Assembly: GCF_004010195.1 (NCBI RefSeq)
Contig: NC_057719.1
Span: 33,644,767 to 33,708,766, forward strand
From: Chiloscyllium plagiosum
Lineage: Eukaryota
Direction of reading: 5' to 3'
Length of the DNA: 64,000 bases
Positions within the stretch are counted from its first letter, which is position 1, and the number at the start of each line of letters is the position of its first letter. Below are positions 4,831-63,757 of the stretch, piece by piece. The position numbers were made by a program, and so were the translations under genes. The notes under the pieces are model-generated. The model was not told the origin of the DNA. It saw only the letters and a program-made list of their open reading frames with translations, and ran no database searches.

Positions 4831-4968
4831 CTGTATTCCTGATGAAGGGCTTTTGCCCGAAACGTCGATTTTACTACTCCTTGGTTGCTGCCTGAACTGC
4901 TGCGCTTTTCCAGAACCATTAATCCAGAATCTGGTTTCCAGCATCTGCAGTCATTGTTTTTATCTAGA
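4831..4968 (+). mobile_element. Penelope-derived solo pLTR (family 1a) with minimal hammerhead motif
   Basis: Core ctgatga-a-gggc-tttt-gccc-gaaa-cg-tc at 4839-4866; direct repeat atgttaagg at 4822-4830 and 4969-4977. Confidence 0.85.
4839..4866 (+). ncRNA. minimal hammerhead ribozyme motif
   Basis: CUGAUGA, 4-bp stem II, GAAA, palindromic ACGU, GUC cleavage triplet. Confidence 0.75.
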
Positions 4969-7461
4969 ATGTTAAGGGAGATTGACATAAATGGTACCAG
5001 GGATGAAAGATTTCAGGAACATGGAGAGACTGGAGACATGAGTGTTGTGTTTATATGAGCTGAGAAAATTGAAAGGAGACTTGATAAAGAGGTGCAAAAT
5101 CATTCAAGATTCTGATGAGTAAATCCAAAGAAACTGCTTCCAGTAGTAAAGGGACAGGAACAACAGGGAGGTATAAATTAAAGGTGACTGGCAAAGTAAA
5201 CAGAGGTGGTATGGGGAAACTTCTGCTATTACAAATTGGAATATTGTGAAATGGAATACATTGTTTGAAAAGGTGAAAGGAACTAGATTCACAAACATTC
5301 AAAAGGGAATTATAATGGACAAAATATTTAAAAAATAGAATTAAACAGCTATATCTACCAAACATGATATACCAACACAGATATGATGGGGTGAAAAGCC
5401 TTCTCCTATATCATTTTGTCATTCTGGGCAGTGGTACATTTACTTATTTAATGTATAAATATTATAAATCAGTTAAAGGGGAAAAACATTAATTCATTCC
5501 TCTTTTTAATTTTTCTTAATCTCTCTACATAAATTACAAGTTTTCACATTCTTTTCTTATGATTTCTTTTGCCTCTTACCCCTGTTTAATGCTGCTGTAA
5601 TAAAACATTACAAATTCATGGTACCCTATTCCTTATTAATATGCCTGAAAAGTGTATATTTTCAATGGCTCTGGCTCAGTGAAGTGTTCTTACTTCAATC
5701 AGTTAGTTGGAAGTTCAAGTAGACTTAACTACATAAACCTGGACTTTTAGGACACAGCGAACCACCTTCCATTTCTCCCTTCCTCCCCATTCCAACCATG
5801 AGGGAATGCTATGCTGACTTCCCTGCTGATATTTATTGTTCAGCAGGATGATGGACATTTATCTAAGGGTGAAACTTCCAATTCCACTTGGGATGAAGAC
5901 CCTTCTTAGACAGCTGCCAGTCAATCTAATGAGCTGGCAGGTTTACAGTCCCAGCAGCACCAGGTTGCAGCAGTCAAGGAGATAATGGAGACCAGAATTT
6001 GTGCAAGTACAGGGTATCGGTGTAGCCTAGTTTCAGGTCACAGCAACAGGATAAGGGGCTAGTGTCTAGGTTTGAGAGAATGGGGAAGGACTAAACGGGG
6101 TTATCTCAAATGGGCACAGGGATTCCAAAAGAAAGTTAGCCCCCACTTCATTGCCTGACCCCTGCTCACTCAGTAGGGTCTACCCAGGCCACAGATAAAT
6201 TAGTGGTGGAGGTGGAATAAAGCACTGAAGTGGCTATTATTTGGTCACCTAAGGGCCTCAACTGGCCCAAAGGTGGGTGAGCCACATGACAACTCTATTA
6301 CCCGCTTATACAATGGAAGGAAAGATGGATGGGTGGTATGTGGCACGCTGTCTGTATTCTGTACCATTGGAGCCTCCCTCCTTCCAGCCTATAAGCAAGG
6401 TCTGTAAGATTTCAGCCATAATCTAAGTAAACACTTCACTACAATACTGATGAAGTGTTGTATTACCATAGATGCATTAAAATCAAGGTCCACCCTCACT
6501 TTCACTTCCTATGGACTTGATCCATCGAAACAGCAACAATCAGTAAATGAGATTATGTAGTCATTAAAATGTTGATACGTGAAAAATCTTTGGCTGTATT
6601 TTGCTAAGCTGCAACAGAAAGATATCAAATAATTTCCCTTGCAATTAATGTACGGGGCATATGATTTGCATAAAGCTACTTAAATGGAAGTTCTTCTGTT
6701 CATTTATAACTTGAAATCCAGTTGTAGAAATGGAGTTGGAATGATTAGTTTCAATATAGAACTCTCATGAGTACAATCACAGTGAGTGAGATGATGTCTT
6801 TCTACACAGAAATTTTCACGACCTTCTATAGATAGTGGCATTTACAAGGGATTATATTGGAGCTTCAATGGCATCAATAGCTTCAATATAATGAAGGAAC
6901 AATAAATTGTTCAATTAATTGAATTTCCCATTTATGATACTGAATAACATTTGGATAAATTAAATCCACAACTAACCTCTGCAAAACAGACTCACTCAAA
7001 TTATTGCATATATTCGTCTGGATTTTGTGATAGTATTGATGACAGTAATGATGGTGTTCATCATCATTACATCACTGAAATTGACAATAATTTCTGGAGT
7101 CTGCAAAAGTGCAGTTAAATATGGCAATCCAAAACTGTCAGTGATTCTATGCTTTTCCATAGGGTTGAAGTCCCCACAGTTATGTTCAGTTAAATATCAC
7201 TGAGCTAATCAGTAAAAACCCTTCTAAAAGTTATACCATGTTAAATGAGGTGGGTTTTTAATGGCATATTCAGTTTATAACTACTGCTGCACAATTTTTC
7301 TGACCTTGAAAAGTAATCTAGTGTCTGTGCCTCTGGACAATTCAGGATGGACAACAGGTGGTGACCCAGCCAGCAATGCACATATACCATAAATGAGAAG
7401 AAAAACTTTTTTATTGTGACAGATAATACAGAGAAAATCAAGGGCAAGCTAGATGGGCCTT

Positions 7462-9685
7462 GAATCATAGAGTTATAGAGATGTACAGCACAGAAACAGA
7501 TCTCTCGGTCCAACTCATCCATGCTGACCAGATATCTTTAATTAATGTAGTCCCATTTGCCAGCATTTGGCCCAAATCCATTTAAAACCTTCTCACTTGT
7601 ACTCATTCAGATACCTTTTAAACATTGTAATTGTACCAGCCTCCACCTCTTCCTCTGGCAGCTCATTCTATACACGCACTACCCTCTGTGTGAACAAGTT
7701 GCCCTAAGGTCTCTTTTAAATTTTTCCCCTTTCACCTTAAACCTATGTGCTTTAATTTTGTACTCCCTATTCTGGGGGAAAGACCTTGGCTATTCACCTT
7801 AGCCATGCCCCTCGTGATTTTATAAACCTTTATAAGGTCATCCCTCAGCATCCAATGTTCCACTGAAAACAGCTCCAGCCTATTCAGTTTTTCCCTACAG
7901 TTCAAAAACATGTACCCTGGCACATCCATGTAAATATTTTCAGAACCCTTTCAAGTTTCATGACATCTTTCCCATATCAGAGAGACCAGAACTGAACACG
8001 GTATTCCAAAAGTGGCCTAACTAATGCCTTGTACAGCCGCAACATGATCTCCCAACTCCTGTACTCTTTGCACTGACAAATAAAGGCAAGCATACCAAAC
8101 CCCTTCTTCACTATCCTATCTATCTGTGACTCCACTTTTAAGGACCTCAGGTCTCTTTGTTCGGCAACATTCCCCAGGACCTTACCATTAAGTATATATA
8201 AGTCTTGCCCTGATTTGCCTTTCCAAAATGTAGCACCTCTCATTTATCTAAATTATACTCCACTTGCCACTCCTCAGTGCATTGTCCCATCTGATCAAGA
8301 TCCTGTTGTATTCTGAGGTAAATCTTTTCACTGTCCTCTACACCACCAATTTCGGTGTTATCTACAAAATTACTAACCATACTTCCTATATTCACATCCA
8401 AATTATTTATATAAAAGCCAAAAAATAATGAACCCAGCACCGATTCTTGTGGCATACCACTGGTCACAAACTTCCAGTTCAAAAAGCAACCCACCACTAC
8501 TGCCCTGGTTCTTCAACCTATGAGCCAGTTCTCGTGGTCTAATTGGCTAGTATTCCCTGTATTCCATGTGATATAACCTTGTTAACCAGTTGACCTTGCG
8601 AACCTTGTCGAACACCTTACTGAAGTTCATATAGATCACGTCCACCACTCTGCCTTAAACAATCCTCTTTGTTATTTCTTCAAAAAATTTATGTTAGTGA
8701 GATATGATTTCCCATGCACAAAGCCATGCACTATCCCTAATCAGCCCTTGTCTTTCCAAATACATGTAAATCCTATCCCTCAGAATCTCCTCCAATAACT
8801 TGCCCACCAACGATGTCAGGCTCCTCAGTTTTCCCTGGCACTTCCTTACCACTTTTTAAAAAAATGGTACCATATTAGCCACCTCCAATCTTCCAGCATC
8901 TTACTTGTGGCTAGCAACGATACAAAAATCTCAGCAAGGTGCCCAGCAATCACTTGCCCATCTTCCAACAAAGTTCTAGGTTACAGTTGATCAGATCCCG
9001 GAGATTAAAATGCATAAAGGTGCATAAAAGCATTTTAGGACATCCAGCACCTCTTCCTCTGTAATCTGGACACTTTTCAAGATCTTGCTATTTATTTCCC
9101 CAAGTTCTCTAGCTTCGGTACCTTTTCCATTGTAAACACTGATGCAAAATACTCATTCAGTATGTCCTTCATCTCCTGTATTTCCTCAAAAAAGCAACCT
9201 TGCTGATATTTAAGGAGACCTATTCTCTCCTTTGTTACTCTTTTGTCCTTAGTGTATTTGTACAATCCTTTTGAATTCTCCTTAACCCTACTTGCCAAAG
9301 CTATCTCATGTCACCTTTTTGCCCTCCTGATTTCCCCCTTAAGTATAACTACCTTTATACTTTTCTAGGGACTCGCTCGATCCCTGGTGTCTATACCTGA
9401 CATTTGCTGCTTTTTTGATCAAAACCATAATTTCTCTAGTCATCCAGCATTCCCTACACCTACCAGCCTTACCCTTCACCCTAACAAGAACATATTGTCT
9501 CTAGACCTTTGTTATCTCATTTTTGAACGCTTCCCATTTTCCAGCCATCCCTTTACCTCCGAATTACCTGGCCCAACCAACTCCTGGAAGTTCTTGCCTA
9601 ATACCATCAAAATTGGTCTTCCTCCAATTTAGAACTTTAATTTTGAGATTAGGTCCATCATTTTCCATCAGATTTTAAAACTAAA
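7462..9685 (-). mobile_element. CR1 LINE, 5'-truncated, disrupted ORF2
   Basis: Minus-strand ORF pieces VRPLLEYRVQFWS, VTSGMPQESVLGSL, LRDDLIKVYKI; 3' tail (CTATGA/CTCTAT)n at the left end. Confidence 0.92.
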
Positions 9686-11780: not shown

Positions 11781-12447
11781 CTGCAGCAGGAGACAATATG
11801 TTGACTGTCAAGGCGACACCTCCATTTCACGGCCTCCGTTTGGAGGGATGGGAAGTGGGAGTGGGGGGGGTAAAGATAATTAAATTCCATGAAACAAATG
11901 GCATCGCTTTTTCAAATCTTTCTCATTTCAAAGTTTAAGAATGCAACAACTCTCCTTGAGAATGAATCGCTGAATGTAGCAGTTACCGAGGCCTCTCTGT
12001 CTCTCTTTGGCAATGCTTTCCTGCCAGGGAAGAAATTACTTCCCTTCACTATCCTTAGCAAAAAAAATCTATGTCGGTTTTATTTGCACAAAGTCCCTCA
12101 ATCCAGTTGGCACAAAGTGCGATGGGAGTAAATAATGGGGAGGTTATTGGTGTTTAACAGTGACCCGCTCTCGGTGGGAGGGAGGGAGCTTGAGATTATT
12201 GCACTTTTCAAGCAAGCTCGAGATCAGAATGTCTCGTTGCCCCGCACTTTTAGTTTGGTGTCAGTTTCCTTTTTTTTTCCAAAAAAGAATTTTCCACACT
12301 TTGGAAACTTGGCGCTTAAACCCCGCGAATCGACCAGAAAAGAGCACCTTGACCAGTAAGCACTCCTCCGTGCCTCCTGTCGGTTTGGGGGCTCAGATTC
12401 TCAAGTTTGAAATCCCCCTTGGAGATAATGAGGTGCAAGTGGCTATT

Positions 12448-12647
12448 ACACACACACACAGACACACACACACAGACACACAGACAGACAGACACACACA
12501 CACAGAGACACACACAGACAGACACACACACAGACAGACACACACAGAGACACACACAGACACACAGAGACACACACACAGACAGACACACACAGACACA
12601 CACACACACAGACACACACACAGACAGACACACACACAGAGACACAC
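12448..12647. repeat. compound (CA)n/(CAGA)n microsatellite, ~200 bp
   Basis: Seen directly; it explains the THTD/VCVC ORFs. Confidence 0.95.
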
Positions 12648-13100
12648 GCTCTATCTGCATGGACACAATTCAGTTTCATATATCCTCAGATACAAGTGTT
12701 CCCACTGCACAACCCTGGTCACATCCAGTGTGTCTGAGTGAGACAGTGCACATATTCCACAGCTGCTCTGATCGCCTTGAAAGCGCTTTATCGGAGCTCC
12801 ACTTTAACGGGCCGGCGATTAAGCGCCGCGGTTTCAGTACTTTGCCATTTGAAGATCCGTGTTTGCATTTACCACAATGAAGTGACTCAGTGCAAACCAA
12901 CACATCAAACGGAATTCTACCTGCTGGAAGGGAAAACACAGACAGAGCTTTCAGGCCAGTGCTACCGGCTCACTTACTGGCTCAACGCGGCGCTAAATTG
13001 CTGCAAGTGTTGAGAAAAACGCCTCCGGCTTACAGTTAAAGGAGGACAATTTGGTACCCATCCCCAGAAAGGGGGAAATCGCTCCCGTTTGCAAACTCAC

Positions 13101-15449: not shown

Positions 15450-16430
15450 AAAGCCCCATCTCACTTTCTGACAGATCTGTGATCCGCACCCGGTTGCCTG
15501 GAAAGAAAACAACTCCTCCATGTTGGCCACTGATCCATTTAGCATTGCTCTTAAACCTTTGCCCTGGATTCTGGAACCTTCCACCAACGAAAACAGCTTC
15601 TCCCTATCCATTTTATGCAGACTTCTCTTGCTTGTAAATACATCGATCAAATTCTCTGTCAACTTTCTTGTCTTCGAGGATAACAGTCTCAGTTTCTCTG
15701 AATCTTCTCATATAACTGAAATTCTTTGCACATGTGGTAAAAACAATGACTGCAGATGCTGGAAACCAGATCCTGGGTTAGTGGTGCTGGAAGAGCACAG
15801 CAGTTCAGGCAGCATCCCAGGAGCAGCGAAATCGACGTTTCGGGCAAAAGCCGTTCATCGTGGAGAAGGGCCTTTATTCCTGATGAAGGGCTTTTGCCCG
15901 AAACGTCGATTTCGAAGCTCCTTGGATGCTGCCTTAACTGCTGTGCTCTTCCAGCACCACTGATCCAGAATCTTTGCACATGTGACCATTCTCCTGGATT
16001 TTTTTGCCGTCCTCCGAACACCTTTACAACCTAAAGTGTGTGCTCAGAACAGGACACGGCTGGAACTGAACTTGTATGTTTATGCTGGTTTGATTGTAAG
16101 CTTGCTTTTGTACTCTATGCCACTTTTGGTGAAATCCAGGATGCTGTATGTTTTACAAACCGCGCTCTCCACCCGTCATGCAACTTCCAGGGGATTATAT
16201 GCATATGCACCCAGAATACCTCTGCTCCTGCACCTCCTTTAGAATTGCGATTTTTCTTTGATATTGTCTCTCCACATCCTTCCATTAAAATGAATCATTT
16301 CACACTTCTCTGCATTAATCTGCCATTTGGTCTGTCCATTCCACCGACCTGCGAATTCCCTTCTGAAGTTACCATCTTAATGGTTAATAGTACTTCCGAG
16401 TGTTGTCTCATCAGCACATTTTGAAATTGT
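15450..16430 (-). mobile_element. old CR1-like fragment hosting a PLE hairpin
   Basis: ORF 15423-15662 ENLIDVF...MDREKLFSLVEGSRIQG resembles the CR1 ORF2 C-terminus. Confidence 0.55.
15737..15970. mobile_element. Penelope-derived head-to-head pLTR hairpin (family 1a) with hammerhead motif
   Basis: Inverted arms of ~90 bp; intact core on + at 15880-15907; 14-bp TSD tctttgcacatgtg at 15723-15736 and 15971-15984. Confidence 0.9.
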
Positions 16431-17271: not shown

Positions 17272-17545
17272 ACTAGAGGGCAAAGGTTTAAGGTGAGAGG
17301 GGAAAGATATAAAAGAGACCTAAGGGGCAACTTTTTCACACAGAGAGTGGTACATGTATGGAATGAGCTGCCAGAGGAAGTGGTGGAGGATTTAAGAGGC
17401 ATTTGGATGGGTATATGAATAGGAAGGGTTTGGAGGGATATGGGCCGGGTGCTGGCAGGTGGCACTAGATTGGGTTGGGATACCTGGTCGGCATGGACGG
17501 GTTGGACCGAAGGGTCTGTTTCCTTGCTGTACGTCTCTATGACTC
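17272..17545 (+). mobile_element. CR1 3' end fragment
   Basis: TRGQRFKVRGERYKRDLRGNFFTQRVVHVWNELP plus 3' UTR tail. Confidence 0.9.
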
Positions 17546-20027
17546 TTGCGCCCATCACCTCTTGCGGGAGATTGGATACTGTTTTAAAACATCGTTATCT
17601 GTCGGTTCTTGAAAAGCAATCGTCATCTATCTGGAAGTAACGAGTGTTGCGACTTAGCAAGATGCTAGCCACACACACAGAGACAACTGTCCCTTTTGAG
17701 ATTATGGATGCTTCGGGCAAAAGGCGGTTCTTTCTGAAGATAAATCCAGGCGCAAAACTGCTCGTGATGGCTTGATAGATGAAGTTTCTGTTGGGGGAAA
17801 CTGATATGTTGGAAAAAAAAATGCATTTATAGAGTGTCTTTTCACTTTCTCGAGCTTCAGATGCCCAAAGGATAACGTGTGACCCGAATTGTGGAGCCAA
17901 GCGCATTGATTCACTGATCTGTTTTAGTAGAGGTATTTGAGAGAGGAATCTTGGCTGAAACATCAGAAGTCACTGTTATTCTCTTGCAAAAAACTCATTG
18001 ATTTTGCATACACACTAGAGTAGGCTGACAGGCCTAGCACCAATGTCTCATCCAACACACAGTGCAGTTGGGAAATGGAGGGTTGAACCTTGTGTAGATC
18101 TAAGTCTGTCCGCTCCTTATCCTGGTATGTTACATTCTGTAATTGGATGTATGGTGGAATTTAATTTCCTACTCTTCCTTCCCATTATCTTGATAAGCAC
18201 AACGAAGGCGCCATTAATAAATGAACAAGGGGACTGTGAAGTTGATTCGGAATTTGCCTCATGTAAGTATATAAGGCAATGAAGAACTGTAAGTTAATAA
18301 CAACCCTGCAACGCAGAAGACTGGAAGCTCCAGCACGCCTTCCAACATTTATTAAGACAAGTAATAATGGTACCTTTAAATTCAATAACGTTTACTAAAA
18401 CAAAAGACGCGAATGAGATTGAATGTATCCTCTTGCTGGTTACTGTTTCCAGTTCCTGCACGTGTTTCAGAGGGAATATTACCCCTCAGTCCAACACTAA
18501 CGCAGTTATGTCTCAAATGGTTTCTATGGAAACCAAAAGTATATACAATAAAATACGATTTTCTCGTTCTCTTGATCCTGCAACAGTACTATGGCCGAAC
18601 GGATGAATATTGAGATGTGGCACATTAATAACCCACTAACTGTTTAATTAGGGAACCACTTTCAATCGTTTTAAAAGGGCAGAAAATTAATGTTCTTATT
18701 AACTTATACATAAATAGTGTCTCATACAACACGCACCTCAATATAAAAAAAATCCCCGGTACTGAGTAATATAACCAAAGCGATATCTGCTTTTCTTGCA
18801 TTTCTAATAGTGACATTACTTTAGACAAGTCTCTGTTCAACACGAGCCCTCGTGATTAGTTCAACATTAGCAAGTCTTTCTCTGTTGGCTTACTTCTTCT
18901 GTGAAGTTGAATAAGGAATAAAAATATGCCATTGCTTCGTATAAACGTGCTCCCAATAAATACACAACAGGGCAAATGTACTCAGCTCCAGGTTATTCGC
19001 GGAAGGCAAGCTTTTTAAACTGAACAGCCAACATCACGTTCCTCCAGGCCTCATCATGTGAAATGCGGTATGAGTTCCAACCAGAGCTTCTCCGAGCTAC
19101 ACACAGATTGACAGCATGCAAACTCGCGCACCGGTACACTCCTTCCTTGAGCTAGAAGTGGAGTTAACACCGTTTGCACACACCATGGTGATTACGCTGA
19201 CAATGTTTCTTTACGAGGTGTAACTGCCACAGAACGGCACACAGGCCAAGGAGATGCTGACATGCGCTCTCTGACACAGCGCACCCTTTGCTAAGTCGCA
19301 GATCCGAGATTTACATCCTTCAGGAAGACTGGCGTTGGTTTCTGGCTGGAATCTGTGACTGTTGTGTTTCTGTGAGAGTTGATACCGCTTCCTGCAGCCC
19401 GTGTGCACGTTATGTTGCAAGAAAACTGTAATAAGAACACTCCATGTTTTATTAGTAGGCCTTCTTGTTACAGAATTGACCAAGTTGGAGTTTCCTGTCT
19501 TTCGTACAAATTTTGAAAATTCACACGTAAACACATTGAGCGCGTGACGGCAATTTCGAACTTGTTCTTGCACCCCGATCGCCCCACCTCTCCGTTAGTA
19601 AATCAATTTATTTTGATAATCATACAATTCCTGTAGCTTTCACACAAAGTTAACAATATAGATATTTACTTGCCTCTGCTAATTCAAAAGAGCCTGTTGT
19701 GCGAATATACATGTGGGAACATGTACATCTTGTACAGCGCAGTATCTTTATATGATCTCGTGGTTGTCCCTGAAGTTGGCAGCAACTGACCTGGATTCCA
19801 ACAGCGCCATGCTGCTTTACAACGGTAATGCCTCCTTTGCAACTTGAAAAGACAGGGTGGTGGGTACATCTGAACGATTGACTGTCATGCCTGAATGTCT
19901 GATTGACAGTCTTAATGGATGCTTCATCTCGAGACTTATCCTTCCATTGCGTTCAAGTTCTCGCGCCTTCCGAATAGTGCCATCATTGATTTTCACCCTG
20001 CTCTATTGCCCTAGATTTCGTTTTTGT

Positions 20028-23199: not shown

Positions 23200-24870
23200 A
23201 AGGGGCAGAATATTTACAGCCCAGGCCCACTGTATTTGACCCACTGTCGTTATGCCAGTTCAGGCAGACATTCCAGCCCTTGGCCTGTAGTCGTTTGGGT
23301 TTCAACAATTCAAATGTTATGAAATAAGGTAAATGGAATGAGGGTTTTTGCTTCTGTTACCATTTGAGCAAAAAGGACCAGACCATACCCAACAATTCTT
23401 GATTGCCACTCCACCACACCCACACCTCCACCATCATCACCTCGGTGTGATATTCCAAAATTCTTTTCACAACCAGTCTTTTCTGCCAATTATTTTAAAT
23501 TTCTGCCACTGGAAATGATATCTCTGCTAAGAGAAAAATTCTTTCCCATCCATTCAATCTAGACTATTGATCGTTTTATACATCTCATTTTAACAGCTCC
23601 TCAGACTCTTCTGCTTCAACATCTCCAATCTTTCTTCATAGCTAAGATTTTCCATCCTGCAAACATTCTCATAATTCTCTTCTGTCCCCTCTCTAGTGTC
23701 ATTGTCTTTTTCCTCTAATATGTGTCCAGAACTGTAGGTATTGGCCTGACTTGTGTTTTGTGCAGTTTGTAGTCTATTCTTTGTGCTCTGATATTCTATG
23801 CCTCAAATAAAAAAGGAAAATATCCCATTTACTTGGTTATTTATCCATCCTGCCACATTCAGCAATCTGCAGATATTTACTTCCAGGATGATCTACAGTT
23901 TCTCCGAATCCTATAATTTATTGCGCATTCCTTTGTCTTGTTTGCTGTCCTCAAGTGCATATTTGTTTGTGCCTTCATATACTGTTTTTCCTCATGGGAC
24001 ATAATGGAAAAGAATTGGAAGGATTAGTAAGCTGATTATCACCTTATTGAATTATATCATGAACATCTCTTTTGTCACCAATAAGTCTTGAAGTGGACTT
24101 TAACCTGAAGGCAAAAGTGAGGACTGCAGATGCTGGAGATTAGAGTTGAGAATGTGTTGCTGGAAAAGCACAGCAGGTCAGCCAGCATTCAGGGAGCAGG
24201 AGAATCGATGTTTCGGGCAAAAGCCCTTCATCAGGATTGATGATGAAGGACTCCTAATGGAGGACTTTTGTCTGAAGTGTTGATTCTCCTGCTCCTCGGA
24301 TGCTGTCTCACCTGCTGTACTTTTCCAGCACCACATTCTCGAATTTAACCTGAAGCTCCTGGCTCAGAGATAGAGAAATTACCAGTTAAGCCACAATGCT
24401 TCCTCCTCAAAACCATTCCATCACATTTCTTCAGATTGAATTCCTTTTGCCACTTTTCTATTCATCAGACCAACCCAATGCTGATACTCTTCAACTTTCA
24501 CCATCACCATCAATCACAGAACCAAGCTTTGAATCATCTGCTAACGTCTTACTTATGATCCAAGCATTTACAATAAATCATATGATAGAAAGACAGGACC
24601 ACGTACTGAGCTCTATGGACCTCTACGAGAAACAACCTTTCAATTACCAAAACAGGTTTTAAACATTACCCATAGCTTCCCGCCAATATGCCAATTTTGG
24701 ATGAATCTTGTCAATTACCCATCATCTTCTGTCATGAACTCTTACTTTCCTGATCAGTCTTCCATGTTAGAGCTTCACTAAAGCCTTACTAAAATAGTTG
24801 AAGACTGGACTGAGACATTACTCTTATTGAGCTTCCTTGTTATCTCCTCAAATATTTCAATTAAATTAGT
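23200..24870 (-). mobile_element. old degenerate CR1-like LINE with a nested SINE remnant and a PLE hairpin
   Basis: Decayed reverse-strand motifs (tccagaactgta, tcatctgctaac = FADD region). Confidence 0.45.
24111..24343. mobile_element. Penelope-derived pLTR hairpin (family 1b) with hammerhead motif
   Basis: Inverted arms; core on minus at 24207-24234; 12-bp TSD tttaacctgaag at 24099-24110 and 24344-24355. Confidence 0.88.
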
Positions 24871-25079: not shown

Positions 25080-25930
25080 CTCTGACTAGAGATGTAAATC
25101 AAAGAACTGGAGAGCAACTAATATGGTGCTATTGTATAAGAAAAAGGGAAATCAATAGACCAAGTAATTGTAGGTCTGTCATTCTGATTTGGGTGGTAGG
25201 AAAATTATTGGAAAATTATCAGGGATGGGATAAACGTTTAGAAAGACACAAATTAATCAAAGACATTCAGTTTAGACTGATATAAGAAATTCATGTCTGA
25301 TTAACATAATTCATTTTTTGAGGAGGCAACAAGAAGTGTTAAGCGATTGATGAAATATCACATGACAGACCGATCATGAAAGAAAATGCCTATGGAATTC
25401 AAGGCATATTGGCAAAGTGGATCAAAATTTGGCTCAGAGGCTGGAGGCAAATAGTAATGGTCAGTTGGCATTATCGTAAGAAAGGTTGCTTTCAATGGGG
25501 TTCCAGAGGACTCAGCATTGAGTCATAGAGTCATGGAGACATACAGCATGAAAACAGACCCTTTAGTCCAACTCGTCCATGCCGACCAGATATTCTAACT
25601 TAATCTAGTCCCACTTGCCAGCACCCGGGCCAAATCCCTCCAGACCCTTCCTATTCATATGCCCATCCAGATGCCTGTTAAATGTTGCAATTGTACCAGC
25701 CTCGACCACTCTTTGACATCAATGATTTCGACTTGAATGTTGAGGACATAATCAAGAGGTTTCCAGAGGATACAAACATTGGTTATGTGGTTGATAATGA
25801 AGAAAACAACAGGAGGATGCTGAGAGTTATCAAAGGACTACTCTGCTGGTTGGACAGTATCAAGCAGACTTCAATCAAGATAACTAGAAAATAATATATT
25901 TGGAGAGAGCTAACAAGGCAGGATAATAGG
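25080..25930 (+). mobile_element. old CR1-like RT fragment
   Basis: Decayed NYRPVSL, CLTNL and GVPQGS-type motifs. Confidence 0.55.
25522..25710 (-). mobile_element. CR1 3' end fragment nested in an older LINE
   Basis: Matches the 7462-7650 tail. Confidence 0.85.
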
Positions 25931-27602: not shown

Positions 27603-30600
27603 CTCCTTACCAGGGGTAAGCCATGGAGTACAGGTCCCTGGCACAGAGTCTGTCCCTGTTGATCTGAAGGAAAGGGGGAGATGAGCAGAGCATTAGTCAT
27701 TGGGGACTCCATAGTTAGGGGGACAGACAGGAGATTCTGTGGGAATAAGAGAGACTCATGGTTGGTGCTTTGCCTCCCAGTTGTCTTGGATTGTGTTTTG
27801 GGGATCCTTGAGGGGGAGGGGGAGCAGCCCCAAGTCGTGGTCCTCATAGGTACTAACGAAATAGGTAGGAAAAGGATGGGAATTTATGGCAGAAATTCAG
27901 GGAGCTAGGGTGGAAGCTTCGTGCTAGAAAAAACAGAGTTTTCTCAGGTTTGTCACCTGTGCCACGTGCTCGCAATGTGAGGAATAAGGAGAGAGAGGAG
28001 TTGAACACGTGGCTGCAGGGATGGTGCAGGAGGAAGGGTTATGGATTCCTGGATAATTGGGGCTCATTCTGGGGTAGGTGGAACCTCTACAAACTGGATA
28101 GTGTACACCTGAACCAGAGGGGTACCAATATCCTGTGGGAGTGGGTGGAATTTCTTTGGTAGGGTTTAAACTAATTCAGCAGGGGGATGGGAACCTAAAT
28201 TGTAGCTCCAGTGTCCAGGAGTTGAGAGTGGTGAAATCAGAAATGAGGTTTCAAGGTCACAAGAGTTCACTGGCAAGCAGGAAGGTGGTTTGAAGTGTGT
28301 CTACTTCAACACCAGGAGTATCCGGAATAAGGTGGGTGAACTTGCAGCATGGGTTAGAACCTGCGACTTTGATATTATGGCCATTTTGGAGATATGGATA
28401 GAGTAGGGACTGGAATGGTTGTTGGGATTTAAATGTTTCAGTAAGAACAGTGAAGATGGTAAAAGAGGAGGAGGTGTGGCATTGTTAATCAAGGACAATA
28501 TTACGGTGGCAGAAAGGACGTTTGAGAACTCACCTACTGATGTAGTAAGGCTGGGGTTAGAAATCGGAAAGGAGAGGTCACCCTGTTGGGAGTTTTCTAT
28601 AGGCCTCCAAATAGTTCCAGAGATGTAGAGGAAAGAATAACAACAATAACTCTGGATAGGAGCGAGTAACAGAGTAGTTGTTATGGGTACTTTTAATTTT
28701 CCAAATATTGACTGGGAATTCTATAGTTGGAGGACTTTAGAAGGGTCAGTTTTTGTCCAATGTGTGCAGGAGAGTTTCCTGACATAGTATGTAGACAAGC
28801 CAACAAAGGGCGAGGCCCTACATTGGATTTGGTACTGGGTAATGAACTCAGCCAGGTGTTAGATTGGGAGGTAGGTGAACACTTTGGTGATAGTGACCAC
28901 AATTTGGTTATTTTTACTTTAGCAATGGAAAGTGGTAAGTATATACCACAGGGCAAGAGTATTTCTTGGGAAAGGTAATTATGATGTGATTAGGCAAGGT
29001 TTAGAATGCATAGAAGGGTGAAGGAAACTACAGGGGATGGGCACAATTGAAATGTGGAGCTTATTCACAGAATGGCTACTGTGTGTCCTTGAAAAGTATG
29101 TACCTGAAAGGCAGGGAGGAAGTGGTCGAGCGAGCAAACTGTGGTTTATTAAAGATGTTGAAACTCTTGTCAAGAGGAAGAAGAAGGCTCATGTTAGAAT
29201 GAGACATGAAGGCTTATTTAGGGCGCTTGAGAGTTACAAGTTAGCCAGGAAAGACCTAAAGAGAGAGCTAAGAAGAGCAAGAAGGAGACATGAGAAGTTG
29301 TTGGTGGACAGGATCAAGGAAATCCTAAAGCTTTCTATAGGTATAGCAGGAATAAAATGACTAGAGGAAGATTAGGCCCAATCAAGGATAATAGTGGGAA
29401 GTTGTGTGTGGAGTCTGAGGAGATGGGGAAGCACAAAAAAAATATTTTACTTCAGTATTCACACTGGAAAAATACATTGTTGTCGAGGAGAATATGAGAT
29501 ACAGGCNNNNNNNNNNNNNNNNNNNNNNNNNNNNNNNNNNNNNNNNNNNNNNNNNNNNNNNNNNNNNNNNNNNNNNNNNNNNNNNNNNNNNNNNNNNNNN
29601 NNNNNNNNNNNNNNNNNNNNNNNNNNNNNNNNNNNNNNNNNNNNNNNNNNNNNNNNNNNNNNNNNNNNNNNNNNNNNNNNNNNNNNNNNNNNNNNNNNNN
29701 NNNNNNNNNNNNNNNNNNNNNNNNNNNNNNNNNNNNNNNNNNNNNNNNNNNNNNNNNNNNNNNNNNNNNNNNNNNNNNNNNNNNNNNNNNNNNNNNNNNN
29801 NNNNNNNNNNNNNNNNNNNNNNNNNNNNNNNNNNNNNNNNNNNNNNNNNNNNNNNNNNNNNNNNNNNNNNNNNNNNNNNNNNNNNNNNNNNNNNNNNNNN
29901 NNNNNNNNNNNNNNNNNNNNNNNNNNNNNNNNNNNNNNNNNNNNNNNNNNNNNNNNNNNNNNNNNNNNNNNNNNNNNNNNNNNNNNNNNNNNNNNNNNNN
30001 NNNNNNGATAAGCTGCAGAGTTGGGCTGAAAGGTGGCAAATGGAGTTTAATGTGGAAAAGTGTGAGGTGATTCACTTTGGGAGGAGCAAAAGGAATAAAG
30101 AGTACTGGGCTAATAGTGAGATTCTTGGTAGTGTGGATAAGCAAAAATATCTCAGTCCCCATGAACATAGATCCTTGAAAGTTGCCAACCAGGTTGATAG
30201 GGTTGTTAAGAAAGCATACAGTGTGTTAGGCTTAATTGGTTGAGGGATTGAGTTTTGGAGCCATGAGGTCATGCTGCTGTACAAAACTCTGGTGCGGCCT
30301 CACTTGGAGTATTGTGTACAGTTCTGGTCACTGCATTATAGAAAGGATGTGGAATCATTGGAAAGGGTGCAGAGGAGATTTACTAGGATGTTGCCTGATA
30401 TGGAGGGAAGGTCAAATGAGGAAAGCCTGAGGGACTTGAGGCTGTTTTCATTCACTGTTGTTAGGTCACTTATTTGAGATATACAAGATAATCAGAGGGT
30501 TAGATAGGGTGGACAGTGAGAGCCCTTTTCCTCAGATGATGATGGCTAGCACATGGGGCCATAGCTTTAAATTGAGGGGTGATAAATATTGGACAGTTAT

Positions 30601-35811: not shown

Positions 35812-38117
35812 CTGAAAGGCAACTGACCCTCCCAGTTTCCAAGGAAGCAAACTGAACCTGAGAGTTGGAAAGTTACTGAACAGAATAGAACTGGTTGAGG
35901 CTTTGTGAAAGGGCACAGAAACAATTGTGCAAAGACCTGGCCAGTAAACTTTTAGATAACTTGACCATTTTGGTTATTTTCATATCATAGTCACCAGCAA
36001 GCTAATGAGGCCAAATAAGACATTTTGAGAGTATCTTAGGACTAAAGGAGCCATTTTGTATTCTTTGTGTTCTGTACTTTGTGATTGTTAAAATATAGTA
36101 ATCAAGAATTACTGTATAATTAATAACCAATCAGAAACTGGGGGTTGACTAAGTAGAGAGGTTCAAATAAACTACAATTGAATAATTCTTTTTTAATTAG
36201 TATTTGTATTAATGTTATGTTATACTCAAACAACTGTATGCTTTTCTTAAATCTATTAAGTAGCTTTTGTAACCTTATCCTGGAGAAAAGAATGTTCATT
36301 TAAATATTATGTGCTAACTAGAGTCTTCCTGATATTGAACCAGGCTTGTCCATGAAGGGCAACATTCCAATGTTTTGCTCCCTTGGTTGAGCAATGAGCA
36401 AATTTTAGAAAGCTAACATTTACATGAATAGTAAACAAAAATTTTAGGGAATAAAACTAATTCCAAAGCAAATAGCTAATCATTTTAATGAGTAATTAAT
36501 AAAAAATGACCAATAAACAGTGCCAAACAGCAGTTAATAAAAATGTTTGCTTTTTCAGTTAAGAGATAGGGCTAGAGAGTGACAGACCAGACCCCAAGGG
36601 GTGGGGGTGGGGACCAGGGCAAAACTAAAGAGTCAGATTTAACTAACACTAACTCTGGTGGCACACACTCAAAGCTGGCCTCAGCAGAGTTTATTCAGAA
36701 GTGATGGTTGGAAGCAAGTTGTCTTTCAGCCTAGTTTTTCCTCCTCAGCCAGTCCACTTTATAGATACATTTTCCATTCCAGCCCAACTTGCATTGTTCA
36801 ACTCCACCAGCCTGACTCTTATTGGGTTTCCCAAACCCTGTCAGCTCTATTCTCACTCTGTCCAACAAAGGAGTTTGAGCATTGTACATCTCAAGCCTGA
36901 TCAGTCTCATGAAGTTGCAAAAAGCATTTTTTCTAAATTATGTATATCTTTTTGCTTTTAATGTACTCCCTTTAAAAGTTATTATCCAGAATTCTGCTTT
37001 TGCCTTAATAGGTTTATGTCTTATCCACCCAAACTGAACCTACTAAATAGGCAAATTGAGGTGGTTGAAATCAATGAAGTTGCAAATAACTGAACCAGAT
37101 ATCAAAATATTATCACATGTTCTCCATATGAATGGCTGTCTGTATATAATCTTCCCATAACAATGCATTTCATAACATCACAGACCACTTTGTAAAATAT
37201 TTCTTCTCTTTATTCAAAACATATCATGTTTAATCCCCCATCTATGTCACTTCTTTGCAGATTGCTACCATTGGAAACATTCTGTATAATGTAATATTGC
37301 ATGAGCTTACAATAATATTCACTTGAAAATGATTGGTCGAAGAAGTTTATTGTAACAATGACATTAGAAAAGTTTTACCTCTGTACAACCAGGCTTATTG
37401 ATCTGGTTAGTAAATTCTTGTAATTTTGTGTAACAGTGACTCAACAAATTTATAAACATCCATGAAAGAAAGACAGGTAAAGACTAACGGATCTGACACA
37501 ATGAGGTAGCCCTATCTCAGCGCAACATAAAATGTGCAACCTATTATTACCATTTCCCTTGTACATCATAGTATCTATTAGATAGGAAAAACACAGGAAA
37601 AACATTATTTGGTTTTGGAAAAAATGAATCTAGGAAGTTCTTCTTTGGTTGTGAAAGGTACTTTTTCTAGTGTCAAGCGAATTCAGTGTTTTCGTGGCAA
37701 ACATTTTAGTCATTCTCAGGAATTTGTCTCTCTCTCTCTTTTGACCTTTTACAGAAAAACTGCATTACTCGCAATTTAAGCTCTGAAATTAAGTATTTCC
37801 TGGCATTAAACAAACCTGACTGCTTTTGTAACTGTTATGTTCTGCCATTCTTCCTAACCAATCTCACTAAAGTAGCTTAACTACCCACTTGTGCCTAATA
37901 GAGTGTGTTCCAGCAACAGTGGCATAACAGAAAACATGAATCTTGAATTCCGCTTACCATCAACTCCCCCACAAATTTCAACATACAAAGAAGAAAATTC
38001 TGAATCTGCTTAGATCTGTGTGGTCAACAGATATATTTTATTATTGTATCTATTCAACATTATTAATATGTTTGAAACAATACAGTCAAAGCATAAACAA
38101 AATCATTTTAAAAAAAA

Positions 38118-38433
38118 TTAGATTCCCTACAGTGTGGAAACAGGCCCTTCAGCCCAACAAGTCCACACTGACCCTCCGAAGAGTAACCCACCCAGACCCA
38201 TTCCCCAACATTTACCCCTGACTAATAACCTACACTATGGGCAATTTAACATGGCCAATTCATCCTAACCTGCATATCTTTTGGAATGTGGGAGAAGACT
38301 GGAGTACCTGGAGGAAGCCCACACAGACACGGGAAGAATGTGCAACCTCCACACAGTTGCCTGAGGCCGAATCAAACCTGGGTCCCTGTTGCTGTGAGGC
38401 AGCAGCACTAACCACTGAGCCACTGTGCCATCC
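38118..38433 (-). mobile_element. HE1-type V-SINE, full length
   Basis: tRNA-like head (tggctcagtggttag A box, B box), V-domain, CR1-like tail. Confidence 0.9.
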
Positions 38434-40775: not shown

Positions 40776-40794
40776 ATGGCTACCACCACTAAAT

Positions 40795-45350: not shown

Positions 45351-45354
45351 TCTA

Positions 45355-50492: not shown

Positions 50493-51135
50493 TGATGTGG
50501 GGGTGCCGGTGCTGGACAGGGTGGACAAAGTAAGAAGTCACCAGGTTATAGTTCAACAGTTTTATTTAAAATCACAAGCTTTTGAGGCACTGCTCCTTCA
50601 TCAGGTGAAGTGAAGGGATGCGCACAGGCACAGAATATATAGCTGAAAATGTGTTGCTGGAAAAGTGCAGCAGGTCAGGCAGCATCCAAGGAACAGGAGA
50701 ATCGACGTTTCGGGCATAAGCCCTTCTTCAGGAAAGGTTTTCCTGAAGAAGGGCTTATGCCCAAAACGTCGATTCTCCTGTTCCTTGGATGCTGCCTGAC
50801 CTGCTGCGCTTTTCCAGCAACACATTTTCAGCTCTGATCTCCAGCATCTGCAGCCCTCACTTTCTCTCACAGAATATATAGTCAGAGAGATAATAGCAAG
50901 ATAAATTCAGGTAATTAAGAGTGGAAGCAGATAATTACAAATAGTCTAAGTAGAGTGTCAACTGGCTGAATAGCAAGTCTTTGCAGGTTATCAAAAGTTT
51001 CAATAGCTTAATACAAATGGTGTGAGTGAAGTGTCAACAACTGAATAACAAGTGAACGGATGACCTATGAACTGATTAATTAAGACAGAGATAATTACAA
51101 ATAATCAAAAATAAGATGATGCTAGAGACAAACAT
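50493..51135 (-). mobile_element. Penelope-like family 2 3' region/pLTR with decayed hammerhead
   Basis: Minus strand 50573-50607 reads cac-ctgatga-a-ggagc-agt-gcctc-aaaa-gc-tt-gtg; homologous to 61397-61607; right boundary approximate. Confidence 0.7.
50643..50867. mobile_element. young Penelope-derived pLTR hairpin (family 1c) with hammerhead motif
   Basis: Near-perfect ~92-bp inverted repeat; intact core on minus at 50704-50731; 14-bp TSD cacagaatatatag at 50629-50642 and 50868-50881. Confidence 0.92.
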
Positions 51136-53150: not shown

Positions 53151-53537
53151 AGTTTGAAGTAAATGCGATGAAGCAGTTAGCATCACTGGGAAGAGCAGAC
53201 AAAATAAGGACCCTGAGGCAGACAGCCAGCGTCAGTGTGAGGAACAGGCAAGGTGAAGACTTGAAGACAAGCAGTCAGAGACAGAACTGAATTCATTGGA
53301 ATGAATTGGAAATGGGAATTGCTCTGCTACAGATAAAGGAACTAACTGTTTTATTAGCCTCTAGGAAGTGATTAAGGATTTATAAGATTTTCAAATGTTG
53401 ATATAGTATACAATTTGGTGGCAAAAGGGGTTAAAAAAATGTGAAAAACATATTTGAGCTCATCTATACAAATCTCTCTGCTACAGATTAATTTGTCTAT
53501 GCAAGTATAAGTAGGAGTGACCACTGTACAGTTCATG

Positions 53538-53846
53538 ATTAGATTCCTACAGTGTGGAAACAAGCCCTTTGGCCCAACCAGTCCACACTGACCCTACGAA
53601 GAGCAACTCACCCAGACCCATTTCCCTCTGACTAACGCACCTAACACTATGAGCAATTTAGAATGGCCAATTCACCTAACCTGCACGTTTTTGGACTGTG
53701 GGAGGAAACCAGAGCACCCGGAAGAAACCCATGCTGACATGGGGAGAATGTGCAAACTCCACACAGACAGTGACCCGAGACTGGAATCGAACATGGGAAC
53801 CTGGTGCTGTGAGGAAGCAGTACTAACCACTGAGTCACCGTGCCAC
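53538..53846 (-). mobile_element. HE1-type V-SINE, full length
   Basis: Homologous to 41863-42177. Confidence 0.9.
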
Positions 53847-57756: not shown

Positions 57757-58250
57757 GGTGAGAGGGTAATGATTTAAAAGGGACCTGAAGGGCAACTTTT
57801 TCACACAGAAATTGGTGTTTTTGTGGAACGAATTACCAGAGAAAATGGTAGAGGTGAGTACAGTTACAAGATGTAAAAGATATTTTGACAGGTACATGGA
57901 TAGGAAAGATTTAGAGGGATATGCTGAAAATGTGTTGCTGGAAAAGCGCAGCAGGTCAGGCAGCATCCAAGGAATAGGAGAATCGACGTTTCGGGCATAA
58001 GCCCTTCTTCAGCCCTTCTTCGGGCTTATGCCCGAAATGTCAATTCTCCTGTTCCTTGGATGCTGACTGACCTGCTGCGCTTTTCCAGCAACACATTTTC
58101 AGCTCTGATCTACAGCATCTGCAGTCCTCACTTTCTCCTAGAGGGATATGCGCCAAACACAGGCAAATGGGACTAGTTCAGTTTAGGAAAACTTCTCAGC
58201 ATGGACAAGTTGGACCAAAGGGCTGTTCTGAGCTGTGTACCTCTATAACA
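57757..58250 (+). mobile_element. CR1 3' end fragment hosting a PLE hairpin
   Basis: ggtgagagggtaatgatttaaaagggacctgaagggcaactttttcacacaga through the tail gctgtgtacctctata. Confidence 0.85.
57925..58138. mobile_element. Penelope-derived pLTR hairpin (family 1c) with hammerhead motif
   Basis: Inverted arms; intact core on minus at 57985-58012; 13-bp TSD tagagggatatgc at 57912-57924 and 58139-58151. Confidence 0.92.
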
Positions 58251-58259
58251 TCATGAAAG

Positions 58260-60612: not shown

Positions 60613-61396
60613 AAGGAATATATTTTCAAATTCTGTCTGCTATAATTGCACTATTGGATTCGCAAACTGCTCCATTTACCACTACCTCTACTCACTGAGC
60701 AACAATCTCTATTAACCACTGCTCATGCTTCTCTCTTATAGCCTCACTTCATATTCACACACACAGTTATGCTGCAAGTTCGCACCTATATCTCACAGCT
60801 TGTACAACTGTTCAACTACCAAAGGAATAACTCCCAAACAGATTATACCACATTCACTCTCTCCCCCTATCTCCAGGACACATTGGTAATGACCAGAATC
60901 AACAGCTCATTGATGCATGTCCTCATGCAAGGAAAAATGCTCACCCACTTCTTCTGATTTAAAAGCTGTGGATGGAGTAAACAATAAACTTGGTCGTCCC
61001 ACCTTGCCTCACCAAAACCCCATCCTCAAGCATTTCACTTTTCAAATGTCGAAAAAAGAACTGTCACCTGGCTAAGCAATAATTCTGAAGCAAGGCAGAG
61101 GAGAAAGAAAAGATGCTTATGAAGAAAGACTGTCACTGAATCTCATATTCACAATCGCCAGCTCAGATATCAACACTGAATAATTTAGAACCTGGCCCTT
61201 CGATAGGATCTGCAGATAATGTGAATACTGGGCATTGGTAGCCTGCAATCAGGGAGAGAGGGCGGGGAGAAGGATAGTACAGCTCTCAGCTAGCCAGGTA
61301 ACAAAGTCAAATGGTGGTTCTGCTGTAGGCTACTCAGGTATAGACTTAGAGGTACATAAAAAGGCTGCTGGGTATAGGTATTGAAATGCTTGATGT

Positions 61397-61607
61397 CTTG
61401 ATGTGGAGGTGCCTGTGTTGGACTGGGGTGGACAAAGGTAGAAATCACACGACACCAGGTTATAGGCCAACAGATTTATTTGAAATCACAAACTTTCAGA
61501 GCTCTGCTGCTTTGTTACTTCACCTCATGAAGGAGCAGAACTCTGAAAGCTTGTGATTTCTAATAAACTTGTTAGACTATAACCTGGTGTCATGTGACTT
61601 TTGGCTT
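61397..61607. mobile_element. Penelope-like family 2 pLTR hairpin with decayed hammerhead
   Basis: Inverted arms (gacaccaggttata / tataacctggtgtc); core cac-ctcatga-a-ggag..ctct-gaaa-gc-tt-gtg at 61521-61555; 10-bp TSD tgcttgatgt at 61387-61396 and 61608-61617. Confidence 0.82.
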
Positions 61608-61809
61608 TGCTTGATGTATTGGCATGTCTGACAGAAACTCACAGTGACTGGCAAGAACCTTAAAGGACAAGCACAAAACTTTATGCACTTTGTTTACAGC
61701 ATAATATTGCATAATCTCATCCAAATTGGTTGCCAAACTTTCAAATGTGTTTAGGCTAGAATCATGGCTGCCATTCCAATAACTTGGAGCTTCTTACAGG
61801 TGTCCTGCC

Positions 61810-61947
61810 TGTATTCCTGATGAAGGGCTTTTGCCCGAAACGTCAATTTTATTGCTCCTCGGATGCTGCCTGAATTGCTGTGCTTTTCCAGCACCACTAA
61901 TTCAGAATCTGGTTTCGAGCATCTGCAGTCATTGTTTTTAACCTAGC
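61810..61947 (+). mobile_element. Penelope-derived solo pLTR (family 1a) with hammerhead motif
   Basis: Same ends as 4831-4968; intact core at 61817-61844; imperfect TSD tgtcc(t/a)gcc. Confidence 0.85.
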
Positions 61948-62263
61948 TGTCCAGCCCATCAGAGGGTTGCTAGGATTGCTGAGTCACCACTCCAGATGAT
62001 TGGCAGTTGCTGTAGGAAGTGCCTTTCTGCTGTCTTCCCTCAGATTTTCAGTGTGCATGGCCTTAACATTCCATCTAGGCCTGTGACCTTGTCTGTCACC
62101 CAGCGAGTCCTGACTCCTATCACCTATTTTGAGATGAAGCAAGAAAAATCCTGAGCAAAAATGCTTCCTAATGTCAGATATACAGGAGGTAATTCTACAC
62201 CATCTGTGGTCTCCTACTCTGAAAGACTGCAGCCTTCCATCAGGCATGCAGCAGCCTCTGGAG

Positions 62264-62565
62264 TAGATTAGATTACTTACATTGTGGAAACAGGCCCTTC
62301 GACAGTCCACACCACCCCGCCGAAGCGCAACCCACCCATACCCCTACATTTACCCCTTACCTAATACTACGGGCAATTTAGCATGGCCAATTCACCTGAC
62401 CTACACATCTTTGGACTGTGGGAGGAAACCGGAGCACCTGGAGGGTGCTCACGCAGACACGGGGAGAACATGCAAACTCCACACAGTCAGTCGCCTGAGG
62501 CGGGAATTGAACCCGGGTCTCTGGCGCTGTGAGGCAGTGCTAACCACTGTGCCACCATGCCGCCC
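62264..62565 (-). mobile_element. HE1-type V-SINE, young full-length copy
   Basis: tRNA head, V-domain and tail; CpGs retained. Confidence 0.92.
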
Positions 62566-62947
62566 ACAGTGTAACACTGTGTTGGAGCACCAGGACTTTT
62601 AAAGGCACTAAGAGCAAGTGAAAGGGTGATCAAGTTGATTTTTTTTAATAGAATAATCACCACTGTGATTTCTAAAGCTGGTTTAGGAATTTAGTTTCAT
62701 GGTGGTTTTTCTTTCAGTGTAGTGGTCAAGAGGGTTCTGGTACTTTTTTCAATCATCTAGGTTAGATGTGTTATGGCACACCTCTGGAGCAGATACCATT
62801 GAACCCAAACCTAAGTAGGGACACAACCACACCACCACAACAGCCCTGCATCAAGAGGATTCAATGATGGGTTGCAACAAAGTGTACATATTGTAATTGA
62901 TGATTGCAAAATTGGATTTGTCTGCACTAGAATGACACTTGGATGAA

Positions 62948-63757
62948 GGCCAAGAGTGTGGTGCTGGAAAAGCACAGCAGGCCAGGCAGCATCCGAGGAG
63001 CAGGAAAATCAATATTTTGGGCAAAAGCCCTTCATCAGGAAGGAGGTTGGTAGTCTCGGGCGTGGAGAGATAAATGGGAGGGGAGTAGGGCTGGGGGTCT
63101 GAGTGCAATAGGTGGATGACGGTGGCGGTAAAGGTGATAGGTCGTAGGAGAGGGTGGTGTGGATAGGTGGGAAGGAAGATGGGACAGGTCATGTGGACGG
63201 TGCTGAGCTGGAAGGTTGGAATTGGGGTAAGATGGGGGGAGGGGAAATGAAAAAATAGTGAAATCCACATTGATGCTTTGGGATTGGAGGGTCCCAAGGC
63301 AGAAGATGAGGCATTCTTCCTCTAGGCGTTGGTGGTAAGGGAGTGGTGATGGAGGAGGCCTATGTCCTTGGCAGAGTGGGGGGAGAGGGTGCGGTGTTAA
63401 AGTGTTCGGTCACGGGGTGGTGGGGTTGATTGATGTCCTGGAGATGTTTTCTGAAGCACGCTGCGAGTAGGCATCCTGTCTCCCCCAATGTAGAGGAGAT
63501 CACGTCAGTAGCAATGGATACAATAAATGATATGTGTTGAAGTGCGGGTGAAACTTTGATGGATGTGGAAGGCTCCTTTAGTGCATTGGACAGAGGTGAG
63601 GGGGGAGGTGTGAGTGCAGATTTTGCAATTCCTGTGGTGACAGGGGAAGGTGCCATGAGGGGAGGGTGGGTTGTTGGGGGGCGTGGACTTGATGAGGTAG
63701 TCACAGAGGGAACAGTCTTTATGGAAGGCGGATGGAGTAGGGATGGAAATATATCTC
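62948..63757 (-). mobile_element. 5'-truncated Penelope-like retroelement: GIY-YIG endonuclease remnant plus 3' pLTR
   Basis: GTFPCHHRNCKIC...IIYCIHC...LLYIG/ETG...FRKHL...HPVTEHFN; pLTR with decayed hammerhead at ~63011-63038; 15-bp TSD tgacacttggatgaa at 62933-62947 and 63758-63772. Confidence 0.9.

Follow-up and report, generated by a model that had tools for sequence, protein, structure and literature searches.

Hammerhead motifs in a 64-kb stretch of the Chiloscyllium plagiosum genome lie in probable truncated and inverted ends of a Penelope-like element

The link between minimal hammerhead ribozymes and Penelope-like elements (PLEs) was published in 2014 by Cervera and De la Pena (PMC4209133). 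In that survey, which counted 9,000 motifs in Xenopus and 4,000 in the coelacanth, most motifs are single copies "probably related to truncated PLEs", and pairs on opposite strands are found 100-700 bp apart. For the element PAc, it has been reported that both target strands are cut and extended and that the hammerhead is dispensable for insertion, and no RNA reads at the cut site were reported (PMC11167929). A CX2-5CxxC linker before the GIY-YIG domain marks Neptune and Nematis PLEs (PMC8557442), and the pseudo-long terminal repeat (pLTR) of Drosophila Penelope contains a downstream promoter element (DPE) and an internal promoter (PMC2377424). Here we analyse a stretch of 64,000 nucleotides of C. 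plagiosum (positions 33,644,767 to 33,708,766 of contig NC_057719.1 in an assembly of 3.56 Gb; hereafter, the window), in which a 28-nt motif with a hammerhead core recurs, and we show that the six exact copies of this motif are minimal hammerheads in the pLTR of a PLE of about 3.5 kb. The short insertions that carry them are probably truncated copies, dead on arrival, each of which the element's own reverse transcriptase (RT) would have produced in a separate event.

An earlier note on this DNA had placed the six motifs at 4839-4866(+), 15880-15907(+), 24207-24234(-), 50704-50731(-), 57985-58012(-) and 61817-61844(+), each in an insertion bounded by its own target-site duplication (TSD). Both statements hold: the positions are exact, and the insertions, which measure 135, 234, 230, 225, 214 and 135 bp, are flanked by TSDs 12-15 bp long with 0-2 mismatches. 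Nine matches with at most 3 mismatches are present in the window, versus a mean of 0.00 and a maximum of 0 in 100 shuffled sequences. Mapping of the TSDs resolves seven insertions of one family (two single arms, four head-to-head palindromes and one fragment of 810 bp), and the claim of at least nine elements in 64 kb is valid if two insertions of a second family (50577-50607 and 61436-61602) are counted as well. In what follows, +1 is the first C of the 28-nt motif, and the predicted cut lies after +28.

That the motif has a minimal hammerhead core with a palindromic stem III and originates from a PLE pLTR, as the earlier note proposed, is supported. Among the 30 relatives of 61809-61940 that were fetched from 40 scored matches, many continue upstream into a common pyrimidine-rich 3' sequence of the PLE or into an inverted arm. 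A second set of 30 loci, found with the open reading frame (ORF) end of the 810-bp window fragment as query, forms a staircase of 5' truncation. The longer natural copies encode an RT with the DKG and YIDD motifs (PF00078, E 1.7e-6), as well as a CX4CxxC linker (in protein P0002) and a GIY-YIG domain (PF01541, E 3.6e-4). Window positions 63393-63741 match residues 134-251 of P0002 (tblastn, E 7.6e-31); a Pfam search with three ORF fragments of the window detected no domain because the fragment is frameshifted. At three loci (L166, L188 and L169), the motif, the pLTR and the tail lead into the body of the element, where an ATG is found at +164/165; this passage of pLTR and tail into the ORF start is the partial-tandem pLTR structure. 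The element thus has an RT with DKG, a C-terminal GIY-YIG domain, a pLTR before the ORF and TSDs, together with a tail at one of its ends and an adjacent truncated copy in inverted orientation, all of which are expected of an endonuclease-positive (EN+) PLE. Coordinate arithmetic across copies gives a unit length of roughly 3.5 kb. Judged by its linker motif the element would be of the Neptune type, the CX2-5CxxC linker being common to Nematis. Two points weigh against the identification as a PLE. The Pfam scores lie just below the curated cut-offs (28.3 vs 29.6 bits for PF00078, and 21.2 vs 22.6 for PF01541), and the RT and GIY-YIG domains were read from separate broken copies, the longest open frames of which span assembly gaps, so that no intact full-length ORF was obtained. 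The PLE ORF also has a Pro/Thr-rich low-complexity stretch of variable length before the RT domain (L063:4400-4800, and the equivalent position in L065).

To describe the family beyond the window, 133 stretches of 10 kb at round-number positions on large contigs, comprising 1,280,834 non-N bases, were searched with a core-free arm query, which returned 260 arms, a count that takes in some older, more distant relatives. All 11 core letters are kept in 85 of these arms, stems II and III are also kept in 60, and a 2-bp stem I is additionally present in 46; only 6 have a 4-bp stem I. Extrapolated to the genome, these counts correspond to 7.2e5 arms, of which 2.4e5 have the core, 1.7e5 stems II and III in addition, 1.3e5 also a 2-bp stem I, and 1.7e4 a 4-bp stem I. 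The very high copy number that had been suggested, and insertion by PLE enzymes, are both supported.

A census of 55 palindromes (51 from the 133 stretches, which were chosen by position, and four from the window) contains 53 distinct junctions; one of them occurs three times, as a 3-nt overlap in three different subfamilies. The known 35-nt tail is present on exactly one arm in 51 of the 55, on neither arm in four, and on both arms in none. TSDs flank 40 of the palindromes, 39 of them being 12-17 bp long. Among the 51 pairs with one tail are 24 in which the arm without the tail extends beyond its tailed partner by more than 3 nt on the 5' side, which shows that neither arm was copied from the other and that both derive from a longer template; a fold-back origin, with one arm copied from its partner, is thereby rejected. 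It should be noted that two-tailed palindromes do occur among loci selected for the tail (L014 and L232), and that self-priming on an antisense template has been proposed for head-to-head PLE junctions (PMC3846280); both points count against the origin of the palindromes that we propose below.

The 5' ends of the arms are far from evenly distributed. For this analysis we used the 172 of the 260 arms that pass an identity of at least 0.85, reach to +84 and have a clean flank. The starting points fall at -11..+13 in 99 of them, at +14..+55 in 38 and beyond -12 in 35. Between 0 and -4 the stop rate reaches 0.118 per nt, compared with 0.004 at -12..-50, a difference of about 30-fold, and the range upstream of the edge is 0.004-0.006. 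Reference bias is ruled out as the cause of this edge, since 78 of the 99 edge ends border on a TSD or on an inverted arm and the remaining 21 have no upstream sequence in common. Two other candidates were set aside. An initiator-like TCATTC (-5..0) is followed about 28 nt downstream by a DPE-like ACGT; this pair was not used as evidence, the spacing being about 2 nt off and the arrangement absent from the second family. In subfamilies A, B and D, a polypyrimidine tract ends in a splice-acceptor-like AG at about -18 to -26 (L009, L071 and L053), and the intron of Drosophila Penelope ends at helix I (PMC4209133). An acceptor near -18 does not explain the edge, however, as only two ends lie at -17/-18.

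We consider it likely that these observations are explained by truncated PLE ends produced in four steps. First, the GIY-YIG endonuclease would cut both strands of the target with a stagger of about 15 bp, as the TSDs suggest. Second, given that the 3' ends fall into two modes, near +126 in arms with the tail and near +90 in arms without it, RT may start at two corresponding internal RNA sites, a reading modelled on the in vitro work with PAc; priming on both strands would give two cDNAs that become joined head to head via microhomology or a short filler, producing a palindrome with one tail. Third, most cDNAs stop at -11..+13, probably because the template RNA begins there: RT primed within the first of the transcript's pLTRs, the one that the ORF start follows at +164/165, would run off the RNA 5' end, and the fifth of the arms that run further would derive from the downstream pLTR of read-through RNA. 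Fourth, selection is likely to maintain the hammerhead only in the source elements; there it would function as a dimer or assisted by protein.

The cause of the pile-up is the part of this scheme that we hold most tentatively, and we put the RNA 5' end as its origin slightly below an even chance. Run-off is preferred because the pLTR of Drosophila Penelope contains an internal promoter (PMC2377424), and because PAc RNA needs sequence downstream of the RT starts, which only the first pLTR offers. A more specific version, in which most insertions are "strong-stop"-like run-off cDNAs of an uncleaved transcript that starts at the hammerhead edge, and in which a dimeric complex uses the two starts asymmetrically, one per strand, is possible but on the whole doubtful. 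Several observations may count against run-off. Eleven ends lie at +28..+32, near the cut site, at a rate of 0.0105 vs 0.0066 and 0.0042 on either side, an excess that CpG decay could equally explain. A G precedes 7 of the 17 arms that start at -3, the rows not being independent, which does not amount to a cap signature. Finally, the ends of the second family are spread over -9..-1 and have no initiator sequence in common.

Alternatively, the copies may be truncated in the same way while the pile-up arises from the structure of the hammerhead itself, at whose edge, when the motif is folded or bound by protein, RT stalls or switches template, or to the footprint of which a 5'-3' nuclease trims the RNA, aided by TTC/GAA microhomology. 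Such stalling or trimming is nearly as likely a cause as run-off, and as a full account it is less likely than not. Two families with unlike upstream sequence have only the motif boundary in common, the thrice-seen junction is the same 3-nt overlap in three different subfamilies, and the PAc hammerhead cleaves only with protein (PMC11167929), all of which would fit a structural cause. However, single arms without any inversion end at the same place, and the predictions give stem I little chance of forming (P<=0.06 in subfamilies A, B and D), which would make it a poor barrier.

The earlier note had interpreted the short copies as dedicated non-autonomous mini-retroelements. Under this hypothesis, pLTR-only copies of about 130 nt would have an internal promoter and be mobilised in trans by the PLE protein, as short interspersed nuclear elements (SINEs) are. 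The idea of a discrete unit of about 130 nt has some foundation, in that 99 arms start at -11..+13, and clean single arms with TSDs often begin at -2..-4. Non-autonomous PLEs are known from Chlamydomonas (PMC8557442), and in a rotifer case the pLTRs are sufficient in cis (PMC3846280). The unit is unlikely to be a separate lineage, though. All four subfamily groups include long copies that run into the 3' region of the PLE, and on a tree of 80 columns with 93 short and 40 long arms, from which arms starting at -12..-49 or after +5 were excluded, the short and long labels interleave (31 changes vs 32.9 when shuffled, with 125 of the 500 shuffles needing no more than 31; agreement between nearest neighbours 0.594 vs 0.573). 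No short-only clade is seen, neither a lineage of its own nor a fixed structure inherited from a master copy is evident, and the junctions differ in 53 of 55 palindromes. In addition, PAc RNA needs sequence 3' of the RT starts, as shown for this Poseidon element (PMC11167929), and such sequence is lacking in copies that end with the tail. It must be said against our reading that the tree is weakly resolved, with 74 of 112 inner branches open, so that small short-only lineages could hide in it, and that two groups of identical rows, with 6 and 7 members, consist of short arms only. On this evidence dedicated mini-element families are not supported, and we regard them as unlikely.

An origin as non-LTR retrozymes, whose hammerhead-bearing tandem units give rise to circular RNAs that are reinserted as monomers, is very improbable. 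The retrozymes of animals originate from the pLTRs of PLEs, and the sole chondrichthyan sampled has them (bioRxiv 10.64898/2026.07.22.740005). However, same-strand neighbours within 700 nt are absent from the window and number only five pairs in the 133 stretches; nowhere in the window are there two or more consecutive tandem units with a complete hammerhead each. Moreover, the ends are not centred on the cut site, and the copies have the PLE tail and inversion pattern.

Regarding the ribozyme itself, the motif has features of the PLE minimal hammerhead. A hammerhead descriptor gave 87 matches vs 0 in the reversed sequence; the nucleotide following A9 is an additional A in 54/54 and 20/20 matches, and the G10.1-C11.1 pair and the palindromic stem III are present. 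Stem I has at least 2 bp in 44 of the 54 matches and at least 4 bp in 8, being perfect only in the GAAU subfamily, and its predicted probability, at most 0.06 in subfamilies A, B and D, is 0.3-0.5 in that subfamily. A distal extension of stem I was considered and found to be unsupported, as its register differs between subfamilies. The subfamily differences that the earlier note had seen at N7 and in loop II are real but not confined to these sites, since 15 downstream positions differ too. None of the 11 core positions varies between subfamilies, compared with 18 of 76 other positions, a contrast that by itself is not significant (about p=0.07). The two families have the core and the extra A in common, and they differ by matched changes in stem II, in the palindrome of stem III (CG vs GC) and in the second pair of stem I, which was not part of the descriptor used in this comparison. 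Such matched changes around a kept core point to selection on the hammerhead in the source elements.

The dispersed copies, by contrast, decay neutrally. In 100 sampled arms spanning the motif, divergence from each column's commonest letter is 40/1000 cells (4.0%) at non-CpG core positions vs 149/3800 (3.9%) in the body (p=0.93), even though the requirement of alignment through the core slightly favours intact cores. G12, which lies in a CpG, is altered in 19 of the 100 arms, and all 11 core letters are kept in 62. The core of the dispersed motifs thus shows no sign of selection, and the proposed system of dispersed working ribozymes is not sustained. The six window motifs, described previously as intact, are so as 28-mers but not as ribozymes: the copy at 24207 has lost the ACGU palindrome of stem III, that at 57985 is without the 5' strand of stem I, and in that at 61817 the first stem I pair is C.A. 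For four of the six, folding predicts that the motif is hidden within a long hairpin (stem II probability 0.00 in every window palindrome and 1.00 in both singles, that of stem I not exceeding 0.02), and the copy at 4839 is the only complete window motif predicted to be unburied. A poly(A) RNA data set from a related organism (X21) contains 4708 reads on both strands that derive from such copies, with no site of many starts or ends; 95% of them continue into unlike sequence. A second run (X22) has no matching reads, and neither run bears on the start site. The copy-derived reads on both strands would fit co-option by the host as working ribozymes or regulatory hairpins, but the neutral decay of the core, the stem II predicted not to form in the window palindromes and the scarcity of a 4-bp stem I (6 of 260 arms) make it the least credible explanation of all.

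The seven first-family insertions in the window illustrate these forms. The single arm with tail at 4831..4965 (+, 135 bp), which contains the motif at 4839-4866, starts at -7 and is flanked by a 12-bp TSD with 1 mismatch (4819-4830 / 4966-4977). Its counterpart at 61810..61944 (+, 135 bp; motif 61817-61844) has a 12-bp TSD with 2 mismatches. The 234-bp head-to-head palindrome at 15737..15970 consists of a tailed arm on the minus strand, with a worn motif at 15834-15861, and a tail-less plus-strand arm with the motif at 15880-15907, within a 14-bp TSD. In the 230-bp palindrome at 24111..24340, it is the tailed minus-strand arm that carries the motif (24207-24234, with the broken stem III palindrome); the tail-less plus-strand arm is worn, and the 15-bp TSD has 1 mismatch. 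The palindrome at 50643..50867 (225 bp, 14-bp TSD) has motifs on both arms, at 50704-50731 on the tail-less minus-strand arm and, with 1 mismatch, at 50743-50770 on the tailed plus-strand arm, and that at 57925..58138 (214 bp, 13-bp TSD) combines a tail-less minus-strand arm, including the motif at 57985-58012, with a tailed plus-strand arm that begins at +11. The seventh insertion is a tail-less 3' PLE fragment of 810 bp on the minus strand (62948..63757), which comprises the broken ORF end with the zinc linker and the GIY-YIG region, the 3' untranslated region and a worn motif (63011-63038), bounded by a perfect 15-bp TSD.

The second PLE-type minimal hammerhead family, which has a 5-bp stem II and a GC-UA stem III, is represented by 123 arms across all loci examined. 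Its 5' ends pile up at the motif edge as those of the first family do, lying at -9..-1 in 24 of 72 cases and at -12..-148 in 11; the upstream sequence is AT-rich, and its 3' ends likewise have two modes, near +85 and +123. In the window, it is present as a worn copy with a stem II of the GGAGC/GCUCC type (50539..50607, -) and as a palindrome at 61436..61602 (motif 61521-61551), which is the source of a sub-threshold Rfam match to mir-1597. Elsewhere, second-family insertions occur at nearly the same site in the first codons of the first-family ORF (L169:760-1080, and L182 at ~950-1080 on the minus strand), which suggests a preferred target or a common event. Rarer motifs resembling minimal hammerheads, with a longer stem II, were seen at L088:+521, L125:-8905 and L083:+1541 (0-based, matched strand) and are probably further PLE families. 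Other features of the window are a long (CA)/(CAGA) microsatellite array (12418-12693), a 500-base N run that is possibly an assembly gap (29507-30006), and dispersed repeats at 2271-2887, 17272-17546, 25523-25697, 30009-30529, 38108-38357, 53528-53844 and 62258-62537, which we take to be fragments of the CR1/L2-type long interspersed nuclear element (LINE) and SINE kinds.

Copies of this kind call for caution in annotation, since such palindromes give sub-threshold microRNA matches and inflate genomic ribozyme counts. An Rfam scan of the window found no hammerhead family at E<=1; it returned seven microRNA matches, six of which lie on palindromes, and one histone stem-loop match, all below the gathering scores. 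At the same time, the genome provides a very large natural data set on the poorly understood PLE mechanism, including the role of the hammerhead. Junctions in the hundreds of thousands that end at the 5' edge of the motif and not at its cut site, together with a near-strict one-tail rule, make precise predictions for the existing in vitro PLE assay. If the strong-stop reading is true, the genome would be a fossil map of the PLE RNA 5' end, and the transposing RNA would not be cleaved by the hammerhead in vivo. A literature search, made mostly without subscription papers and supplements, turned up the PLE-hammerhead link, the tail mechanism and the retrozyme link but no description of these families or of the pile-up of 5' ends.

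In summary, the family is ordinary for PLEs and probably consists of truncated and inverted ends with a relic minimal hammerhead. As in the PLE minimal hammerheads of the 2014 survey, the core has an extra nucleotide between 9 and 10.1, a G10.1-C11.1 pair and palindromic positions 15.2-16.2, whereas stem II has 4 bp here vs 7-8 in Schistosoma, and stem I mostly 2 bp and a U.U mismatch instead of 4-5 bp (PMC4209133). The number of motifs with core and stems II and III, about 1.7e5, exceeds the Xenopus and coelacanth counts, with the proviso that the descriptors differ between surveys. Retrozymes resemble our copies in being pLTR-derived and non-coding and in having a type I hammerhead, but they form head-to-tail arrays with a hammerhead in each unit, unlike the dispersed singles and head-to-head pairs with TSDs described here (bioRxiv 10.64898/2026.07.22.740005). 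The inverted truncated copy with a tail at one end is the published PLE pattern (PMC8557442, PMC3846280). In particular, the family shares with the Neptune EN+ PLEs of Craig et al. (2021) the RT, the CX2-5CxxC linker and the C-terminal GIY-YIG domain, as well as the heavy 5' truncation, the adjacent inverted copy and the tail of 30-40 bp at one end; the sharp pile-up of 5' ends at the hammerhead edge is not found in the accessible text of that description (PMC8557442). Finally, two internal RT start sites bound the tail in PAc, the Poseidon element from Anolis (Frangieh et al. 2024, PMC11167929), as they probably do here. The two elements differ in that the ATG lies in stem II in PAc and at +164/165, 3' of both RT starts, in the family described here, and in that the two strands appear to use different start sites here (51 of 55 palindromes), whereas PAc shows no strand difference in vitro.

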